Of a stretch of 64,000 nucleotides of DNA, positions 16,832 through 32,133 are shown piece by piece. The number at the start of each line of letters is the position of its first letter. The first letter of the stretch is position 1. The notes under the pieces were generated by a model. That model was given only the letters and a program-made list of their open reading frames with translations, was not told the origin of the DNA and did no database searches. The translations under genes and the position numbers were made by a program. The stretch is from an uncultured archaeon (lineage in GTDB: Archaea; Asgardarchaeota; Lokiarchaeia; Sigyniarchaeales; SOKP01): contig CAZOYD010000008.1 in the NCBI GenBank assembly GCA_964583985.1, positions 1 to 64,000 on the forward strand, written 5' to 3'.

Positions 16832-19297
16832 TTAATCAAGCAATTTTGAGATTTTTTTATTTATAATGATGGTTAATACTAAGATTGATAACCCGGCATA
16901 AAGAAGAAAGAAATCACCGAATGGAATTTCATTTGTTGTTTCATTCGAATTAACTGTTATCATTATGGTATCGCTATTTGAATTGCCTGCTTTATCATAA
17001 ACCGTACAAGTATAATTATAGGTTCCGGCAGTCAATCCATCAATATCTATGATGATACCATTTCCATCCCAAGTGGTATCTTTTAGAACGGTGGTATCTC
17101 TTGTCACTTTGTATCGATCAGGATTAATATCATTCACGTTCCAAACTATAGTATGACCTGTAGTTGCTTCAAAATAACTTACATCGTCAGGTTGATCTAT
17201 TAATGGAGCAGTTGTATCAATTGTTAACGAGTAAATGCTTGAAAAAGGACCAACATTACCTGTGCAATCAAAAGCTTGAACCCTCCAATACCATTTCCCC
17301 TCATCTATAGGTGATGTAATTGTATAGCTCGTAAAAAGTATCCCGCTATAATTGATAAGGTCTCCAGAAGAAAATGAATTTAACGTATCTAATTGTAAAG
17401 TATAATTGAAAGCATCAAGGGCTTGACTCCAAGTAAATGTAGGTGTTGATATTGCGATATGTGAATTATCTACTGGAGCAGTTAATGAAGATATTCCCGG
17501 AGGCGCGTCTATTTGAAAACTCTTGATACTTGAAAAAATACCTATATCTCCTTCTGCATCTATTGCTACCACTCTCCAATACCAAACATCATCTTGAAGT
17601 TCAGAAGTAAGCGTATAATGGTTAGTTATTGAGTCGAAATTGAGAAGAGTAGGCGATGAAAAAGAACTTGAATTATCTATTTGAAGAGTATATGAAATGG
17701 CACCTGTAATCGTACTCCACTCAAAGTAAGGAGTGCGATCATGAATTAGAGATTCATTTAACGGCAGGAGTAAATTTACCGCATTGAGTATTATTCTGTA
17801 TGTTATACTTATGGAAAATACCATCGGACTTACAAATGGATCGCTCGTTGATAAAATCGCTTTCCATCTTAACTCGGAATCGATATTCATAAAAGAATGG
17901 CTAATATCTAAATATACTTGTTCCCAATGGGTCCCATTATCTGCTGAAAGGTAATATAAGACATCCGTGGAAACCGGAAGGTCAACATTGGCAGATATTG
18001 TTGCATTATCGATAGATTTAGTTACTTCTGAATATATGATAGTCGATTGAGCGATTGCTTCGGACTCATACATATTAATCAAACTAATATCGATAATGAA
18101 AAACTGGCTCCCAATCATGTAGCCATAAGTACCCACTGCCGCGATTCCATGAATTCCACCCCAATAACCTCCATATATATATTCATAATCGAAAGGCGAA
18201 GAATAAGTATATATTAAATTGGCATTACTGGGATCGCTCACATCATATACATCAAAATACCCCGCAAAAGTATCCGTTTCAACTTCCAAACTATAGCCAA
18301 GATACGCGTACTCATCCGTCACTGATATGCTAGTTATGCTATGAGTTAGAACATCTGAAGAATAAACAACAAAAGGAGAAAGAGGATCCGAGATATTTAA
18401 AATCTTAAATCTATTACTATCAGTACTATAATATTCTTGATAGTAAATCAAATCCTCTAATAAAAACATCTTAGCTAAATATCCCGGAGTATACGTATTA
18501 ATAGGAGTTGGATTAGCTGCATCACTGATATCTATCATAATGAGCTCTCCAAATGATCCATACGCAATATCATCTTGAATAAATAGATCTCCAATTCTCG
18601 TATTTATCATTGAATGATCTGGAGTAGGTTTATAACCTCCAATTTGAATGACACTATTGGGTTCGCTAAAGTATATCGACACCAATCCATGAAAATCATC
18701 CCATAGGTATACATTCCAATAATCTCCTGATTCACTTGGCACTGCCCATACGTGATATGGATAACGATTATCTTGTAATGTATCGTCAACGTAATAATCA
18801 AATAGGGAGTTTACGAATACTATATTATTTGGATCACTCACATCATAAATCACTAACCCTTGGTGATAAATCGAAGCGAAAAGATAGCCACCATCGACAT
18901 ATATATTATTAATTAGATATGGAATTGATGTATCATTTCCAATTAATTCAGGTAAGGAGGGGTTGCTAACGTTATAAATGTATATCTTGTTCCAACCTCC
19001 TATGTATACAATATCTCCAATGATAAAGAGATCATCTCCATTGACATCTGTTCTATTGAGAGTAATATTTTTATCCGGAAGTGTAATGTTACTTAAGCCC
19101 CAACCATAAACTGTCGTTTCAGTTTCATCCATGTATGTTGTTGACACAAAAGTTTCGGAAAACATATTTGTAGAGGAATCATGTAAAGAGTTTATTGGGT
19201 AAAAGGAGTCCTGATCAATAACTTTCCAAGAACATGCTAAAATCAATATTAAAATAGTTAAGGATAAAATAATTTTGCTTTTTATACTATTATTCAT
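16832..19297 (-). CDS. Secreted surface protein with LVIVD-like beta-propeller repeats, Ig/FN3-like domains and C-terminal anchor
   Basis: Signal peptide. Repeats YNVSNPSLP, YDVSDPNN, IDISDAANP, LNISDPLSP, YDVSDPSNA. Two WYWRV FN3-like units. IPFG motif, TM and KK tail. Confidence 0.85.
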   Translation of the reverse strand: MNNSIKSKIILSLTILILILACSWKVIDQDSFYPINSLHDSSTNMFSETFVSTTYMDETETTVYGWGLSNITLPDKNITLNRTDVNGDDLFIIGDIVYIGGWNKIYIYNVSNPSLPELIGNDTSIPYLINNIYVDGGYLFASIYHQGLVIYDVSDPNNIVFVNSLFDYYVDDTLQDNRYPYHVWAVPSESGDYWNVYLWDDFHGLVSIYFSEPNSVIQIGGYKPTPDHSMINTRIGDLFIQDDIAYGSFGELIMIDISDAANPTPINTYTPGYLAKMFLLEDLIYYQEYYSTDSNRFKILNISDPLSPFVVYSSDVLTHSITSISVTDEYAYLGYSLEVETDTFAGYFDVYDVSDPSNANLIYTYSSPFDYEYIYGGYWGGIHGIAAVGTYGYMIGSQFFIIDISLINMYESEAIAQSTIIYSEVTKSIDNATISANVDLPVSTDVLYYLSADNGTHWEQVYLDISHSFMNIDSELRWKAILSTSDPFVSPMVFSISITYRIILNAVNLLLPLNESLIHDRTPYFEWSTITGAISYTLQIDNSSSFSSPTLLNFDSITNHYTLTSELQDDVWYWRVVAIDAEGDIGIFSSIKSFQIDAPPGISSLTAPVDNSHIAISTPTFTWSQALDAFNYTLQLDTLNSFSSGDLINYSGILFTSYTITSPIDEGKWYWRVQAFDCTGNVGPFSSIYSLTIDTTAPLIDQPDDVSYFEATTGHTIVWNVNDINPDRYKVTRDTTVLKDTTWDGNGIIIDIDGLTAGTYNYTCTVYDKAGNSNSDTIMITVNSNETTNEIPFGDFFLLYAGLSILVLTIIINKKISKLLD

Positions 19298-20005: not shown

Positions 20006-21331
20006 TTAAGCTCTTGGATTTTCAATTAATATAGCCACACCTTGCCCACCACCACAACAGGCGTTAGCAATTCCATATTTAGCTTTCTTATCATTTAAAA
20101 TACGTGCTAAAGTACCTGTTAAGCGAACCATGGTAGATCCCAATGGGTGTCCAATTGCTGTGGCTCCACCCATAACATTGACTTTTTCTTCCGGAATATT
20201 GAAATGTTTCATGCAGTTTAAAGTGACAACGCAGAATGCTTCATTTATTTCCCAATAGGAGATTTGATCTGCAGTCAATCCCGCATGCTTTAGAGCCATT
20301 TCTGTCGCAGGGACAGGCCCTCGTCCCATAACGGAAGGATCTACACCGGCAATACCTATGGAAATTATTTTTGCCATTGGATTTAAACCCCTTTTTTCAG
20401 CTTCCTTACCTTCCATCAATAACATTGCAGTTGCACCAGCATTTAATGGTGATGAATTTCCAGCGGTGATTACTCCTTCTGCTGTTTTTTCTGCATATCC
20501 TGGTTTTCCACTTTCTCGCTCCCGATAACCATCTCTTCCGCCGATGTCTTTCCCATTAATATTTTCCTTTAAATAGTATGGTTTTGATAATCTTCTTAGA
20601 TTGGATACTTGTTCTAAAGTTGATTTTCTTGGAGCTTGATCCTTATCAATTAGAATCCTTTCTTCGACATTTCCTTCTACATGACCTTCAATCGGAATGA
20701 TTTCTCCTTTGAACCATCCAGCTTCAGTATTATCAACTGCTAAATTATGACTACGAACCCCAAATTTATCTAAATCTTCCTTAGTGAAAAAGGGAGTTTC
20801 TTGTTCATAAAGTTTTTGAGCCGTTTGTAACATGTTAATGGTAGTCATGAGATCATATTGAGGCCGATATAATTCATCCTTTTTGTTGATCATGCCAAGA
20901 TAAGGTTTTGTCCAATCATTTTGCATTGGAATTCGTGTCATGTGTTCTACACCAGTAGCCAATCCACATTTTGTATAACCTGTCATGATCTCCAAGGCAA
21001 GAAATTGGGCACCTGCACCAGCTGAACCGCATTGTCTATCGATGAAAAAAGCGGGAGTTTTAACTGGAAAATCAGCCATAAAAAGAGGAAGTCGTCCACC
21101 GTACGTCCATTGTTCATAAACGCCCATCGCACTCCCAACGGAATAATCATCTACATCATCCTTTGTTATTCCTTTGTCAGCTAACTTCTCATCAAAAAAT
21201 TTCATGATAAGTCTTGCTAAGAGTTCATCTCCACGTTGGTCACCGAATACGTCTCGTTCAGGTTCTTTAGGACGGCTTCGGCTAAAAGCTGTACGAGCGT
21301 AATCGATTAACCATACTTCATTCAATTCCAT
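20006..21331 (-). CDS. Acetyl-CoA C-acyltransferase (thiolase)
   Basis: DRQCGS, GVEHM, TAGNSSPLNAGA, EINEAF, GHPLG, CCGGGQG. Confidence 0.95.
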   Translation of the reverse strand: MELNEVWLIDYARTAFSRSRPKEPERDVFGDQRGDELLARLIMKFFDEKLADKGITKDDVDDYSVGSAMGVYEQWTYGGRLPLFMADFPVKTPAFFIDRQCGSAGAGAQFLALEIMTGYTKCGLATGVEHMTRIPMQNDWTKPYLGMINKKDELYRPQYDLMTTINMLQTAQKLYEQETPFFTKEDLDKFGVRSHNLAVDNTEAGWFKGEIIPIEGHVEGNVEERILIDKDQAPRKSTLEQVSNLRRLSKPYYLKENINGKDIGGRDGYRERESGKPGYAEKTAEGVITAGNSSPLNAGATAMLLMEGKEAEKRGLNPMAKIISIGIAGVDPSVMGRGPVPATEMALKHAGLTADQISYWEINEAFCVVTLNCMKHFNIPEEKVNVMGGATAIGHPLGSTMVRLTGTLARILNDKKAKYGIANACCGGGQGVAILIENPRA

Positions 21332-21538
21332 TGTGATTTTACCTCTAAATTTTTTTTTCTTTTATGTTTTTTTAAAATGTATTGCATATAATGAATTATG
21401 GAAGTTTGAAATGTAATTAAATATTTTGATAATTTGATGTTCGAAAAGTTAAATAAATTTGTGATTATTTTCCTTTTTAATTAATTTATAATAATCATCA
21501 CTAGAATTATTTTTATTTTTGGAAAATTTAAAATACCT

Positions 21539-21937
21539 ATGTTTGAAGCTTTAGTTTCAATTATCGCTGGTAGTACTTCAGATAAAGAAGTCTATGAAAA
21601 AGTGGAAAATGTATTAAAAGAACATGATATCAAATATGACCTTCAAATTATATCGGCACACCGTGATCCTGATAAGTTGGATGAGTATCTGAAAACGTCT
21701 AATTCTAAGATCTATATTGCAGTTGCGGGGCTATCTGCTGCATTACCTGGAGTCATTGCTTCTAAGACTGATAAGCCTGTCATTGGGGTACCAGTAAGCA
21801 CAAAATTGGGTGGTTTAGATGCGTTATTATCAATCGTACAAATGCCTCCTAAGGTTCCAGTGGCTTGTGTGGGAATTGATCGGGGAGAGAATGCGGCTTA
21901 TTTAGCCATTAGAATTCTTAATTTGTTGAAAAAATAA
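21539..21937 (+). CDS. purE: AIR carboxylase / N5-CAIR mutase PurE
   Basis: [44 protein letters not shown]. Confidence 0.95.
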
Positions 21938-21941
21938 AATC

Positions 21942-22655
21942 GTGGTGAAATTCGTGAGTGAAGAACTGATTGAATTAGGCAAAAAAAACGCTGCTGTTAA
22001 AGCAGTTAAGGAAAACGTCAAAAAAGGAATGATTTTGGGAATCGGAAGTGGCTCCACAGTTGTATATGCCGTTGAAGAAATAGCAAGAATGAATAAAATA
22101 GAGGATTTGAATTTGAAATGCATCCCAACTTCTTTTCAAGCACATCAATTAATTGTTGATAATGGTCTCACTCACTTATCTTTAGACCAATGCCCTGAAA
22201 TTGACTTGGATATTGATGGTGCTGATGAAATTGATAAACATCTAAATTTAATTAAAGGAGGGGGAGGATGTTTGGTTAGGGAGAAAATTGTTGCTTCTTC
22301 TTCAAAAAAATTAGTAATTATCGCAGATTATCGCAAAAAGTCAGAAAAATTAGGAGAAAATTGGAAAAAGGGAGTACCGGTCGAAGTAATTCCTTTTGGA
22401 TATGCCCCAATTTTAAAAAAATTAGAAAAATTGGGAGGTACCCCTAAGTTAAGGATGGCTCAAGCAAAAGCAGGACCTTTAATTACCGATAATGGGAATT
22501 TTATCATAGATGTTGATTTTGGTATCATGGATTCTCCCTCCGATATTGATTTTAAGATTTCTCAAATTCCTGGGGTCGTGGACACTGGATTTTTCATAGG
22601 AATGACCTCAAGAGCCTATATAGGACAAAAAGATGGAAAAGTTATCGTTTTATAA
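21942..22655 (+). CDS. rpiA: Ribose-5-phosphate isomerase A
   Basis: GIGSGST, DGADE, IKGGGG, REKIVA, PVEV, TDNGN. Confidence 0.96.
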   Translation: MVKFVSEELIELGKKNAAVKAVKENVKKGMILGIGSGSTVVYAVEEIARMNKIEDLNLKCIPTSFQAHQLIVDNGLTHLSLDQCPEIDLDIDGADEIDKHLNLIKGGGGCLVREKIVASSSKKLVIIADYRKKSEKLGENWKKGVPVEVIPFGYAPILKKLEKLGGTPKLRMAQAKAGPLITDNGNFIIDVDFGIMDSPSDIDFKISQIPGVVDTGFFIGMTSRAYIGQKDGKVIVL

Positions 22656-22661
22656 TTAAAA

Positions 22662-23288
22662 ATGATGAAAAAGATCGCTGTTGCTGTTCATGCAAATCAG
22701 GAATTTGATCTTGAACCTCTTGAGGGATTAATAGGGCTTGATTACATCCATGTCGATGTTTCAGATGGTAAGTTCACGCCTGTAAGGAATCTTGATTTGG
22801 ACGTATTTCGAATTCTAAAAGAGAGATATGAGATTCCTATTATCGTTCACATGATGGTCGTGAATCCTGCAAATTATCTTGATGAGATTATCGAATATAT
22901 TGATATCTTTACATTTCATTATGAAATAAAAGAAGATAAATTTAAACTCATTAACGAGATAAAGAATAAAAATAAATTAGTAGGAATTGCTATCAATCCA
23001 GATACTAGTATTTCAAAAATTATTCCCTACCTGCATTTGACAGATTTAGTTTTGGTAATGTCGGTATATCCCGGGAAATCAGGACAGAAATTCATTTCTA
23101 ATTCGATCTATAAAGTAAATGAATTAGCACTTCAAAAAAAGAAATACAATTTTTTGATAGATATAGATGGGGGAATTAATACAGAGAACGCTAAGGGATT
23201 AAATGTTGACATTTTAAGTAGCACGAGTACCATATTGAATGCTAAAGATCCTAACTTAGTAATAAAATTGCTAAAACATTCAAATTAA
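22662..23288 (+). CDS. rpe: Ribulose-phosphate 3-epimerase
   Basis: [39 protein letters not shown]. Confidence 0.9.
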
Positions 23289-23319: not shown

Positions 23320-26300
23320 TTATATATTTAATGATTTTCCACAGTTTGAACAAAACTTCTTCTGAGACGCTAAAGGATAACCACAATAGGGACAGTATTC
23401 GAATTTAGATTTCTGTTCTTCCGATTGAGTGTTATGAGATGTCTCATCATAAGGAGAAGCATAAGTACCCCAAGGTTGAAGTTGAGATTTAGGTCTTCTT
23501 GATCTTCTGATAACTAGAAATAACAATAAGGCGACGCCAATCGCTACAATTATGCCTATAATTATTATCCACGTCCAATCTATAACGGATCCCGCTTCGA
23601 TTGATAAAATCATGATAAAGTATTCTGAAGCGCCATCACTATCAAATACTGTAAGATATAAAATAGCTAGATATCCTTCATCAGTGGCAAAGTTGTAATT
23701 GGTTTCCGTTGAGATAGATTTCGTGCCCGTTATTGAGGAATATTGAACTTTAAAAGGAATAATAAATGAACCTATTTGAGAATCAGAAGTTGCTTGGTAG
23801 TTCAATTCAGAAACGGGGAATGTTTGAGGAAAAATAATTGAAATATATCCATCCTCCGTGGTAGATACGATGAAGAGGTTGACTGACACTCGCATTTCAG
23901 CGCTATTACTATCTTCGTAAGGCACGCTATCTAAAACGCTCACGTTGAAATCGAATCGACTTCCTTGAGATGCGGTTACTACATAAGAATATTCTTCATC
24001 ATGAGTATCTTCAAATAAAACGGGTTGAGAGTTATCAATACTAAACTTGGATTTTGTCTCATCAAATTCAGGAGGGTTATTGATAATAGAAGAAAGGATT
24101 CGTGGTGAATTTGGATTAAGATAATTGGAAACTGGATCGGAAGGGATAATGTATACAATAAAATCTCCAGATGGATCCCCAGAAACAGGTGTATGAGTGG
24201 TATTATAGTACGGTGTGCTATAAATCATTGTAGAAGTATAATTTTGGGTTTGTTTTGTATTATAATAAGAGTATACATAGGTTGCCATGTAAGCAATGAC
24301 ATCATAATTGCTATTGTCTAATTGAGCACCAATTTTTAATGGCGAGGACCCCGATCTTTGTGCGTGACCACTCACGGTAAAGGAACTTATGAGAGGAATC
24401 GCTGACGAATTATAGTACAAAAGCTTTATAGATTTGTTATATGTCATGGCTTCGATGGTAATATTCACGTTGATTTCATAGGGTATATAAGACGTGCTGG
24501 GTAAATCAAAGGTATCATTAAAGGCAATTCCATCGCTAACAGAAGTAGCCAATATTTCTTGATAATAACCAACATTCCGAATGGACACGTTTAAGTGTAA
24601 ATTTAGATCATTAGAGGAAATTGGTACATTCTTCACCTTGTCTCGCACGGAAATCGTTAAATTAAGTCGGGAATTAGAAGTTCTTTCAGATTTTAATGCA
24701 AGGTTTATTGACACGTTATCTCTCAAGAAATAATCCATCAAGTTAGACAATAGACGCGAGTGATCGGGATTGGAATCAAAATCATCAGTTAACCAATGTA
24801 GATCTCCAAATGCCACGAAGCGACCTTTTCCCAATGAACTACCATCAGAAACGCTTACGACATCCTTTCCATCAATGAAAGCTAAAGCTTCTGCAGGTGC
24901 TGTCGTTGAAAATGTGTTCCCGTACCCCCATTCAAAACTAGTGACTCCATTAAATATTTTATGAGGGATGATATCATCCACGGTAATTGGATCATACGAG
25001 GCGCCCAAGCCAACCCATATCTCGTCGATAATCGTTTCCTCATTCACTGATATATCCACTCCTAATATTGAGAACAGGGCATTTATATTATCAATACATA
25101 ACTCATTGTGAAGAGTACCAAGAAATAAGATATTTCCCCCATTATCATAATAGTTTTTCAGATTTTCCATTTCCATGGAACTATAAGGCAAGATAGGAGC
25201 TTGTAGCACTATTAAATCATATTGTGAAACTCGTTCTTCAGTAAGTATCGAATTATCCGCATTTATATCGTAATATGGGGTCCAATATTGTGCTCCATAA
25301 TCAATTGAGATGTTTAAACTCGTGATTTCTTTCATTGCTTCATAAAAGTCCATCTGATAATAAGATAATGCAGGGAACCAATCATTTAAGCCGTGAAATG
25401 ATTCCATCAAGATCTTATAATCGGGTAATCGCACATCAACCGTGATTTCGACGGAGTCAAAGAGAGTTAAACCATCAGTTATATTTAACTGGAATGTTCT
25501 GATGCCAATGGAGGCGCTCTGTTCAATTGTAATGCCTAATGAAATGATCGTTTCACCAGCGCTCGAAAAATTAGCCTGCGATTTGTCAAGTGATAAAATC
25601 AACCCATCAACTTCAGTCGGGATATTAATTTCAAGATCTTGACCTTTCCCAGAATAGAGTGTAATGTTGAAAACTTGAGAATCTCCCGGAAAATTTAAAA
25701 GATCGTATGGTTTTATTGGCAATTCATCCGGAAAGAGATTAACCACATTATTCACATCTGAAAAAGTTTCATTGACATTGTGCAAGTATTCCAATGACGC
25801 GGATACATTAATGATTCCCGCTCCATATTTTAAATAATCATGTTCTTCATTAGGAACTTTTCGTGCTCCTTCTAATAATGCGATTCGAGCGGTTTCGGGG
25901 CTTATAGAGGGATAAGCTTGTTTCAAGATCGCAATTGCCCCCGATACAATTGGGCATGCCATGCTCGTTCCACTCAAAGGAATGTAATCGGCATCTCCAG
26001 CAAAATCAAAAAAATCACCAATGTATCGCATTTCTTTTGAAATTACAGAATTCGGTGCCTCTGTCGAAATTACATCGACTCCAGGAGCCACCACATCGGG
26101 ATATCCCAAGTAAGACATCGTAGGTCCCCAACTACTAAATGAAGCTAAGGTATCTGAAGAATCTGTGGCGCCTACGGAAATGATCTCAACTCCTGATGCA
26201 GGACTACCACCAGTGAAATATCCAGGACCATCATTACCTGCTGCCGCGACTAATATCACGCTATGATTTACTATACCAGACATTTCGAGCGTCATGGGAT

Positions 26301-27264
26301 CATTTGCGTCGGGAAGACCTCCACCAAAGCTCATGGAAATGATATCTGCTCCAGCTCCTCCATCTTCAGTAGAATTAACGCACCACTCAATTGCATTAAT
26401 GATATCACCTTCTTCCAATCCCGAAAAATTTCCTGCACGAGCGTTAATTAATGAAACTCCGGGCGCTACTCCGTGATATTGCCCACCTGAAGTATCTCCA
26501 TCGCTTCCAATTAACCCTGCCACATGCGTTCCGTGACCATAATCATCTGTGGCATTTAAAGGACTTTCCCCGGAAACAAAATTTTTACTCATTACGATAT
26601 TAAGATCGGGATGGTCATAAATTCCCGTATCAATAACCGCCACTCGAACACCCGTTCCATTATATGCGAGACTTTCAGCTCCAATCGCAGGAATCCACCA
26701 ATTTGGATAACTGCTCTTACTTAACGAGCTTGTTTCAGGAAGATCCGAATTCATGTATGGATAATCATATAGTTGAGATTTGTAGATCTTCTTGATATCA
26801 TCAATATTTGATAACATGGTTTCTTTCGCAGCGAGTTCCTCTAATGATATTGATAAATACGTTCCCGAAATGATGTCATAATTACCGAGAATTTCAAATT
26901 CTTCAAACACTGAATTAATAATGTCTAATCTATTATCTTTCTCCACATTCTCTTTGAAAAGCATGATAATTTTGACTTTCTGAGATTTGGAATTCGAACC
27001 ATTTGATAATAACTGGGTTAAATCCGTATCAAAAATTGAATTTTTAGCATTAATTTTCAAATCGGGATTCGAAGAATCTCTGGAAGAATATATAGAAGCC
27101 AACAATGATTGTAATTCTGGATTGGTAATGATCTTTTCGTGATTGTTTTTATAAGTTGCATTACTACCTCCAGATGCCATGATTGGAATAAGAAGCATGC
27201 AAGCCATGATATAACATAGAATTAAACCTTCTTTTTTTATTCTAAAATTGTGCATGAGTATCAA
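23320..27264 (-). CDS. Membrane-anchored S8 subtilase with GATase-like accessory domain, C-terminal TM and cytoplasmic zinc ribbon
   Basis: Signal peptide and I9-like prodomain. Triad VIDTG / HGTHVAG / SGTSMA, oxyanion AAGN. TM WIIIIGIIVAIGVALLLFLVI followed by RRSRR. CPYCG...CSNCG tail. Confidence 0.93.
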   Translation of the reverse strand: MILMHNFRIKKEGLILCYIMACMLLIPIMASGGSNATYKNNHEKIITNPELQSLLASIYSSRDSSNPDLKINAKNSIFDTDLTQLLSNGSNSKSQKVKIIMLFKENVEKDNRLDIINSVFEEFEILGNYDIISGTYLSISLEELAAKETMLSNIDDIKKIYKSQLYDYPYMNSDLPETSSLSKSSYPNWWIPAIGAESLAYNGTGVRVAVIDTGIYDHPDLNIVMSKNFVSGESPLNATDDYGHGTHVAGLIGSDGDTSGGQYHGVAPGVSLINARAGNFSGLEEGDIINAIEWCVNSTEDGGAGADIISMSFGGGLPDANDPMTLEMSGIVNHSVILVAAAGNDGPGYFTGGSPASGVEIISVGATDSSDTLASFSSWGPTMSYLGYPDVVAPGVDVISTEAPNSVISKEMRYIGDFFDFAGDADYIPLSGTSMACPIVSGAIAILKQAYPSISPETARIALLEGARKVPNEEHDYLKYGAGIINVSASLEYLHNVNETFSDVNNVVNLFPDELPIKPYDLLNFPGDSQVFNITLYSGKGQDLEINIPTEVDGLILSLDKSQANFSSAGETIISLGITIEQSASIGIRTFQLNITDGLTLFDSVEITVDVRLPDYKILMESFHGLNDWFPALSYYQMDFYEAMKEITSLNISIDYGAQYWTPYYDINADNSILTEERVSQYDLIVLQAPILPYSSMEMENLKNYYDNGGNILFLGTLHNELCIDNINALFSILGVDISVNEETIIDEIWVGLGASYDPITVDDIIPHKIFNGVTSFEWGYGNTFSTTAPAEALAFIDGKDVVSVSDGSSLGKGRFVAFGDLHWLTDDFDSNPDHSRLLSNLMDYFLRDNVSINLALKSERTSNSRLNLTISVRDKVKNVPISSNDLNLHLNVSIRNVGYYQEILATSVSDGIAFNDTFDLPSTSYIPYEINVNITIEAMTYNKSIKLLYYNSSAIPLISSFTVSGHAQRSGSSPLKIGAQLDNSNYDVIAYMATYVYSYYNTKQTQNYTSTMIYSTPYYNTTHTPVSGDPSGDFIVYIIPSDPVSNYLNPNSPRILSSIINNPPEFDETKSKFSIDNSQPVLFEDTHDEEYSYVVTASQGSRFDFNVSVLDSVPYEDSNSAEMRVSVNLFIVSTTEDGYISIIFPQTFPVSELNYQATSDSQIGSFIIPFKVQYSSITGTKSISTETNYNFATDEGYLAILYLTVFDSDGASEYFIMILSIEAGSVIDWTWIIIIGIIVAIGVALLLFLVIRRSRRPKSQLQPWGTYASPYDETSHNTQSEEQKSKFEYCPYCGYPLASQKKFCSNCGKSLNI

Positions 27265-31509: not shown

Positions 31510-32133
31510 TTATTCACGAATACTTGCATTCAACTCATGACCACAATAGGGGCAAAAAAGAGCTTTTCTGGTTATTTCGGAACTACAATTTTCACATGTT
31601 ATCTTGTATTCCATTAATGAGGGGATCGTCTCGGTGATGTTTTGAAACGAACTTTGTAATGCTTCCTCTACTAATTTTAACTGTACCTCTCTTTCCGAAC
31701 GAGGATTGGATCTAATGTAAACGGAACTCAGTTCCACGAGATAATTTTCAATAAATTTCAGTTGATCCGTAAAATTCTTGTTGACTTTCAACTTTAATAT
31801 GGCTTCTCCTGCTCCAGTTAAGAAATATACCTTGCGGAGGGGACCAATAGGAGTTTTGAACATGTTGGATTGCAAAAAGTGGTCTTTCTCTAATTTAGTC
31901 AAAATCGGATAAATCGTCCCCGATTGAGCCACCCACGTTCCCGCAAAATGTGTATTAAGGCTCTGAATCAAATCGTAACCTGATAGCCCTCCAGAATTAA
32001 AAATAGTCTCGATTATTGTAAATTCCAGAGGAGTGAGCTTGGTCAACTTGATTCTTTTAAAATTTTCACGATCTACAGTATTTCTTAACTCTTGTAAATC
32101 TTCTTCCAAGTCAACAAACTTTCCAAGCCACAT
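31510..32133 (-). CDS. PadR-family regulator with C-terminal zinc ribbon (copy 1)
   Basis: SGYDLIQ, SGTIYPILTKL, RKVYFLTGAG. CENC...CPYCG tail. Confidence 0.9.
   Translation of the reverse strand: MWLGKFVDLEEDLQELRNTVDRENFKRIKLTKLTPLEFTIIETIFNSGGLSGYDLIQSLNTHFAGTWVAQSGTIYPILTKLEKDHFLQSNMFKTPIGPLRKVYFLTGAGEAILKLKVNKNFTDQLKFIENYLVELSSVYIRSNPRSEREVQLKLVEEALQSSFQNITETIPSLMEYKITCENCSSEITRKALFCPYCGHELNASIRE

Follow-up and report, generated by a model that had tools for sequence, protein, structure and literature searches.

Does an archaeal surface protease carry the body plan of the eukaryotic site-1 protease (S1P; MBTPS1/SKI-1), and what would such an enzyme do? The question is raised by one open reading frame (ORF) in a 64,000-nucleotide stretch of DNA, referred to here as the window, which comprises positions 1-64,000 of contig CAZOYD010000008.1 (GCA_964583985.1) from an uncultured Asgard archaeon (Lokiarchaeia; Sigyniarchaeales; SOKP01). 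S1P acts as gatekeeper in SREBP and ATF6 signalling. A cryo-electron microscopy study of the human enzyme describes two prodomains, a Peptidase S8 subdomain, a non-canonical 'P-like' beta-sandwich (residues 479-616), a GIFT subdomain (617-998) and a transmembrane (TM) segment (PMC11231238). We conclude, with a probability of roughly 0.7, that the ORF encodes a self-activating endoprotease of the subtilisin type, displayed at the cell surface as a type I membrane protein, which has the S1P body plan and whose GIFT-bearing head probably shares common ancestry with that of S1P; orthology to S1P and a role in signalling are not claimed. It is a known type of protease in a new, archaeal variant.

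Results

Features and topology of the protease

The gene and the parts of its product are arranged as follows.

23320..27264, minus strand: whole protease ORF, one uninterrupted frame of 1314 amino acids (aa) from a TTG codon, stop codon included
27175..27255, minus strand: putative signal peptide, residues 4-30 (KK, hydrophobic core, IMA/SGG cut), from a hydropathy scan and the sequence
26695..26988, minus strand: subtilisin-type (I9-like) propeptide, residues 93-190, aligned with the Tk-SP propeptide in 3AFG; beta-alpha-beta in the model
25765..26682, minus strand: Peptidase S8 catalytic domain, residues 195-500 (Pfam, 3e-49)
26629-26631, 26533-26535, 26233-26235 and 25963-25965, minus strand: verified codons of D212, H244, the oxyanion N344 and S434
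25429..25752, minus strand: beta-sandwich after S8, residues 505-612, counterpart of the S1P 'P-like' subdomain
24715..25428, minus strand: GIFT (GATase1-like) domain, residues 613-850
23599..24702, minus strand: all-beta 'stalk', residues 855-1222, about four sandwich domains (DSSP of the model)
23509..23577, minus strand: TM helix, residues ~1230-1252, followed by RRSRRPK (positive inside), from a hydropathy scan
23323..23508, minus strand: cytosolic tail, residues 1253-1314 (62 aa), with a zinc ribbon at its C-terminal end
23332-23397, minus strand: CPYCG..CSNCG zinc ribbon, residues 1290-1311 (Pfam Zn_ribbon families)

Translation probably starts at the ATG at 27253-27255 (residue 4) rather than at the TTG. 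A Pfam scan of the product matched Peptidase_S8 at residues 203-483 (3e-49), IFT52_GIFT at 665-747 (8.6e-10), DUF4350 weakly and the zinc ribbon at 1290-1311. The catalytic domain has the S8 fold with the triad in D-H-S order and the oxyanion Asn, as in subfamily S8A, and this tetrad (D212/H244/N344/S434) is invariant in alignments of 32 and of 36 Asgard sequences drawn from many families. The propeptide aligns with that of Tk-SP and is folded in the model, as befits an I9-type intramolecular chaperone, and may be removed by autoprocessing. GIFT membership is borne out by a GATase1-like alpha/beta fold that fits GIFT profiles. The order of S8, P-like sandwich, GIFT and single TM helix is thus that of S1P, with an extra stalk of ~370 aa between GIFT and the membrane. 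The invariant tetrad, considered along with the gene's context, suggests an endoprotease that is active, activates itself and is tethered at the surface, with a head of the S1P type.

The hydropathy scan picked out two hydrophobic stretches only, the N-terminal signal (residues 12-30) and the TM helix (~1230-1252). Because a signal-like stretch is accompanied by just one helix, with RRSRRPK behind it, the protein is predicted to be of type I: a large portion would lie outside the cell, and 62 aa would form a cytosolic tail. The outside part carries 23 N-X-S/T sequons, compared with 15 +/- 3.4 in shuffled sequences, and 9 of the 23 lie in the stalk. A hidden Markov model built from the stalk recovered it in orthologues across the phylum.

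Predicted packing of the outer head

An AlphaFold2 model of residues 93-1225 (1133 residues), computed from an alignment with 35 homologues from across the phylum, reached a mean predicted local distance difference test (pLDDT) score of 89.1 and a predicted TM-score (pTM) of 0.84. When this model was compared with the PDB by Foldseek, the top matches were human S1P (9CSD_A, E 4.4e-37; 8UW8_A, E 3.0e-36), aligned over 754-765 columns of 738-744 residues with a TM-score of 0.58 by target and 19% identity; Tk-SP came next, at E 5e-32. S1P was the only solved chain to align over S8, sandwich and GIFT with the relative placement of the domains included, and 585 residues of the two proteins fit one superposition. 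Taken singly, each head domain is closer to another solved protein than to S1P. Since S1P is the best and the only structural match to the full head, domain order and packing as in S1P are confirmed at the level of a predicted model: the protease and the eukaryotic enzyme agree in the three domains of the outer head and in the way these pack.

These results bear out what a preliminary description of the window had observed. The ORF is real and the motifs quoted from it occur in the order given: PDELPIKPY..FNITLYSGKG at residues ~512-540, KILMESFHGL at 617-626, SQYDLIVL..NGGNILFLG at 680-716, NINALFSILG at 726-735 and GKGRFVAFGD..LLSNLMDYF at 812-848. Three of the S1P motifs that it had cited proved correct and collinear in a HMMER alignment to the human S1P chain 8UW8. 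The S1P domain order that it proposed agrees with the cryo-electron microscopy description (PMC11231238), and a Foldseek search, of the kind that it suggested, placed S1P first. With the observation confirmed, its interpretation is partly supported, as set out below.

Sequence relationships to S1P, Tk-SP and IFT52

In sequence, the S8 region is 35-41% identical to Tk-SP and subtilisins, compared with 23-24% identity to S1P over all three domains. Tk-SP was the best match in PDB searches with the full protein (3.7e-49) and with a 32-sequence family profile (2.2e-71); subtilisins followed each time, and S1P was not among the best 60. The region from sandwich to GIFT (residues 501-871), used as a single query, matched IFT52 at 1e-4, and S1P was absent from its PDB matches. 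A 36-sequence profile of the same residues matched IFT52 at 3.5e-16 and S1P at 1.5e-3, the S1P alignment running collinearly from the sandwich into GIFT. The likeness to S1P thus exceeds chance in structure (Foldseek E 4e-37) and is no more than borderline in this protein's own sequence.

The Pfam models give a similar picture. Among 36 family members, IFT52_GIFT matched all 36, ABC_transp_aux 35 and MBTPS1_4th 10 (best 1e-6). PF23094 (MBTPS1_3rd), which describes the S1P sandwich, matched neither the protease nor the 36 family members at E <= 1; across 300 Asgard genomes it exceeded its cut-off in none and gave no credible match, and the sandwich as a whole carries zero sequence signal toward S1P. 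PF23090 (MBTPS1_4th), which describes the S1P GIFT domain, had no match in the protease (E <= 1) or in 67 genomes of its own family. Across the 300 Asgard genomes it matched 27, 18 of them over the cut-off, and it matched none of 14 control genomes; nine of the ten best matches in Asgard genomes sit in ORFs that also carry S8.

The signal toward S1P is clearer in other Asgard lineages. For an S8-GIFT orthologue from another Asgard family, S1P was the best PDB match (2.3e-4); for a Helarchaeota orthologue, S1P and IFT52 were tied. A 10-sequence profile of the S8-linked GIFT domains of other Asgard lineages (A4) matched S1P at 2e-15, over S1P residues 606-861, and IFT52 at 1.9e-17; OST48 and bacterial GATase1-like proteins scored far below both. 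Because of the PF23090 matches and the A4 profile score in these lineages, homology between the GIFT domains of Asgard S8-GIFT proteins and of S1P appears solid at the level of the family. The protease of this window is, to judge by these comparisons, a diverged member whose family has lost the direct S1P signal. In the feature space of the ESM Atlas, eukaryotic MBTPS1 clusters lie nearest (0.94, 0.91, 0.90), and once MBTPS1 is set aside, S8 and GIFT-like Pfam domains are combined only in one Thorarchaeota cluster and one cluster without recorded taxa; we treat these neighbours as leads only.

Distribution in Asgard archaea

More than 120 close homologues of ~1320 aa were found, under the labels Promethearchaeota, Loki, Thor, Heimdall, Hod, Hermod and Odin, and many Asgard families have full-length frames (1220-1340 aa), at identities down to 23-30%. 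A sandwich-plus-GIFT query matched 206 of 300 Asgard genomes and 71 of the 89 of high quality (E <= 0.001), a count in which weak GIFT-only matches to shorter ORFs are included. Searched against 1.84 billion cluster representatives, the same region gave 5106 matches at E <= 1e-3; about 85 of the best 150 have propeptide, S8, sandwich, GIFT and stalk, mostly with TM helix and zinc ribbon, and the rest are mainly multi-GIFT proteins. All S8-GIFT matches that bear a name are Asgard (Loki, Sigyn, Hel, Odin, Thor). The long form makes up one Asgard orthologue group, which spans the phylum and is mostly present in single copy. Among prokaryotes the S8-GIFT architecture is apparently restricted to Asgard archaea and was not seen elsewhere, as judged from the 14 model control genomes (none with PF23090), the names of the matches and the ESM Atlas neighbours.

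Other Asgard S8-GIFT proteins have a head in common with this protease, namely propeptide, S8, sandwich and GIFT. Closest to S1P in layout is a short form, exemplified by an 818-aa protein (L056, G041:C4:776000-781500) and an 807-aa protein from a Lokiarchaeota-labelled cluster (P0203). Both consist of signal peptide, propeptide, S8, sandwich and GIFT, followed directly by a TM helix and a short basic tail (..YLYRRSKKQF), with neither stalk nor zinc ribbon, which amounts to the full S1P layout. PF23090 matches four of the five genomes of the L056 family.

Further arrangements were noted alongside these. Proteins of 650-725 aa (L057, L059, L060, L063; in G214, G142, G235, G238) run S8-sandwich-GIFT and end directly after GIFT; their sole strongly hydrophobic stretches are near the N-terminus, which suggests that the head also comes in a third topology, anchored at the N-terminus. 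Variants of 1365-1440 aa (L061 = G017:C4; P0236, P0269) have ~400-550 aa inserted between S8 and GIFT, and in P0236 and P0269 the insert precedes sandwich and GIFT. Giants of ~1200-2170 aa (P0232, P0305 and ~100 relatives; L093 = G039:C126) combine S8 and one to three GIFT domains with CARDB, A2M, dockerin or PKD. Many of them have precomputed MBTPS1_4th matches under a source annotation of merely 'thermitase', and giant S8-GIFT-CARDB-A2M proteins do occur in Asgard genomes, in one at 64% identity.

In the archaeon's own genome, where four genes encode S8 domains and about six frames encode GIFT domains, this protease gene alone joins the two. The GIFT-only frames, of 247-454 aa (C12:11468-11743, C46:5779-6117, C14:22963-23190, C52:39-656 and C9:29451-29726), exceed the Pfam cut-off for IFT52_GIFT, a threshold reached in none of the 14 controls.

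The distribution and the packing bear jointly on whether the likeness to S1P is convergent, that is, whether an ordinary prokaryotic S8-plus-sandwich subtilase of the Tk-SP, Vpr or pyrolysin type gained a GIFT/GATase1-like domain, itself widespread, on two separate occasions, once among Asgard archaea and once on the eukaryotic stem. We consider such a double gain rather unlikely. It would have had to arrive at the same order and a similar rigid-body packing of three domains (TM-score 0.58; 585 residues in one superposition). PF23090, moreover, is found almost only in S8-linked GIFT domains and in no control genome, and every named S8-GIFT protein that was found is Asgard.

Neighbouring genes and the zinc-ribbon tail

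The genes adjoining the protease, on the opposite strand, encode a thiolase, PurE, RpiA, Rpe and a geranylgeranyl-reductase-like flavoprotein. In a comparison of 14 orthologous 20-kb loci, synteny with rpiA, purE and thiolase was kept in the window's own family only; the thiolase-purE-rpiA block lies at 20006-23288 in the window and recurs at loci L078-L081 and L091. The rpe gene, next to the protease here, was not found in those other loci of the family.

The CPxCG..CxxCG tail is retained in most Asgard lineages. In this genome, 22 TM-bearing frames (100 aa or longer) have a C-x2-C..C-x2-C ribbon (mostly CPxCG..FCxxCG-like) at their end, within ~170 aa after the TM helix, and 9 frames start with such a ribbon ahead of it. 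Given this recurrence on 22 TM-bearing frames, the ribbon appears to be a general tail module of membrane proteins and not specific to the protease. A PadR regulator in the window (31510-32133) bears the same zinc ribbon. The window also encodes, at 16832-19297 on the minus strand, an 821-aa protein that combines an LVIVD repeat with Big_13/PKD-like Ig domains and probably belongs to the cell surface as well.

Discussion

Proposed function

The protease would be exported by its N-terminal signal peptide and fold with the aid of the I9-type propeptide, which is most likely removed autocatalytically, as in its homologues Tk-SP and the subtilisins. In the model, S8 packs against sandwich and GIFT in an S1P-like arrangement. 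By analogy with S1P, GIFT probably braces the oxyanion-hole loops and narrows access to the active site, and an enzyme so restricted would be better suited to limited cleavage of folded proteins than to bulk digestion. The ~370 aa of beta domains, probably glycosylated, would keep the head away from the membrane, to which it would be tethered by the single helix and the cytosolic zinc ribbon used on some 20 other membrane proteins of the genome. Cleavage at or near the cell surface, in the processing, shedding or turnover of surface proteins, would be its most likely job, with protein foraging a possible second use. We favour limited cleavage of surface or nearby proteins on the ground that the gene belongs to the conserved core and is mostly present in one copy.

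Several points weigh against this proposal. The domain packing comes from a predicted model, and the gating role assigned to GIFT is transferred from S1P. Across the 14 orthologous 20-kb loci no neighbouring gene is conserved phylum-wide that would point to a pathway. For Asgard archaea, protein use and extracellular peptidases have been predicted and in some cases shown (PMC9123169), and the present data do not separate a plain nutritional role from surface processing.

On the nutritional account the enzyme would be a cell-bound digestive protease of a peptide-fermenting archaeon, in which GIFT and stalk act as spacers or binding modules only. That its closest catalytic relatives, Tk-SP and the subtilisins, are degradative and that the DNA comes from salt-marsh sediment agree with it, as does the protein use just mentioned. 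Foraging enzymes are usually patchy and variable, however, whereas this one is largely single-copy and constant in length and architecture, zinc ribbon included, throughout the phylum; and GIFT packing in S1P narrows access to the active site (PMC11231238). A purely digestive role is therefore doubtful in our view.

Much less probable is that the protease is S1P proper in an archaeon, whether as orthologue or as direct ancestor, making the first, luminal-side cut in a membrane-tethered regulator that an M50 site-2 protease then releases, as happens with SREBP and ATF6. Such an identity would accord with the three domains and packing of the head, with the ESM Atlas neighbours (0.94, 0.91, 0.90), with the match of other lineages' S8-linked GIFT to S1P at E 2e-15 and with the presence of M50 proteases, for which the preliminary description had suggested a search and whose genes are indeed in the genome. 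M50 is, however, present in 14 of 14 control genomes; being universal there, it is uninformative about a cascade, and we rejected it as support for an SREBP-like one. No regulator or protease is conserved next to the gene, whose flanking genes are housekeeping; the S8 domain is nearer to Tk-SP and subtilisins; PF23094 was not found, nor PF23090 in this family; stalk and zinc ribbon are absent from S1P; and no candidate substrate emerged. The proposal that the protease starts regulated intramembrane proteolysis thus found no support. That the protein might be a non-catalytic accessory subunit of a transporter, as GIFT domains typical of ATP-binding cassette (ABC) transporter auxiliary proteins (ABC_transp_aux in 35 of 36 family members) could suggest, is contradicted by the intact, invariant tetrad and by the lack of adjoining ABC transporter genes here and in the 14 orthologous loci, and can be set aside.

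Possible origin of the S1P body plan

A shared origin of the head is possible, because the GIFT domains of other Asgard lineages match S1P and no named S8-GIFT protein was found outside Asgard archaea. Tentatively, and at somewhat less than even odds, eukaryotes inherited the S8-sandwich-GIFT-TM plan from Asgard archaea, in which it had first evolved; on this reading S1P would count among the eukaryotic signature proteins, so far overlooked as such, with the short form (807-818 aa) its likeliest ancestor type and the long zinc-ribbon form a widespread sister of the latter. The S1P-like body plan at least hints at an archaeal root of that plan. The earlier reading of the ORF as an Asgard relative of S1P, hence a eukaryotic signature protein, stands as regards the structure of the head and the S1P matches of GIFT in other lineages, and is weaker as regards this protein's own S8 and GIFT sequences and the two S1P-specific models, PF23094 and PF23090. 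Since Asgard GIFT domains match S1P about as well as IFT52, this archaeal pool might be the source of the eukaryotic GIFT domains as a group, and it may be relevant to where those of IFT52 and OST48 come from.

Full-text searches of the literature collection used here returned no paper that joins Asgard archaea with S1P, MBTPS1, SKI-1, IFT52 or the GIFT domain. If the reading is true, a phylum-wide Asgard protease with an S1P head gives S1P an archaeal prehistory and offers a simpler, SPRING-free system in which to study what GIFT does in a protease. Models of eukaryogenesis also give a central place to the surface and protrusions of these organisms, and a conserved protease that sits at that surface with a zinc ribbon in its cytosolic tail would be a candidate processor of their surface proteins. 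For this window itself the gain is modest, as its protease is a diverged member, and both its descent and its function stand as proposals.

Comparison with known systems

The protease resembles S1P (8UW8, 8UWC, 9CSD) in having signal peptide, propeptide, S8, sandwich, GIFT and a single C-terminal TM helix in the same order, with collinear motifs at the start, middle and end of GIFT in the HMMER alignment to 8UW8. S1P is further marked by R-x-x-(L/hydrophobic) cleavage specificity and by prodomain processing in two steps. The archaeal enzyme differs in that overall identity is 19-24%, with the archaeal S8 domain nearer to Tk-SP and subtilisins; the S1P GIFT region is ~140 aa longer than the archaeal one, and the archaeal protein adds the ~370-aa beta stalk and the zinc-ribbon tail. 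Its predicted site is the cell surface, as against the Golgi, and it is without a partner of the SPRING or SREBP type; SPRING, the activator of S1P, has been described from eukaryotes only (PMC11231238). In S1P the GIFT subdomain, unique to that enzyme within the proprotein-convertase family, stabilises N338 and gates the active site (PMC11231238). Tk-SP of Thermococcus kodakarensis (3AFG, 9UES; PDB chain of 539 residues), by comparison, has no GIFT, stalk, TM helix or zinc ribbon. IFT52, OST48 and the bacterial GATase1-like proteins (5FMS, 5FMR, 6S7O, 2GK3) lack a protease, and IFT52 is cytoplasmic. The GIFT domain described here is nearer to IFT52 than to S1P by sequence, but unlike that of IFT52 it is predicted to be extracellular and is fused behind an S8 domain and a sandwich.

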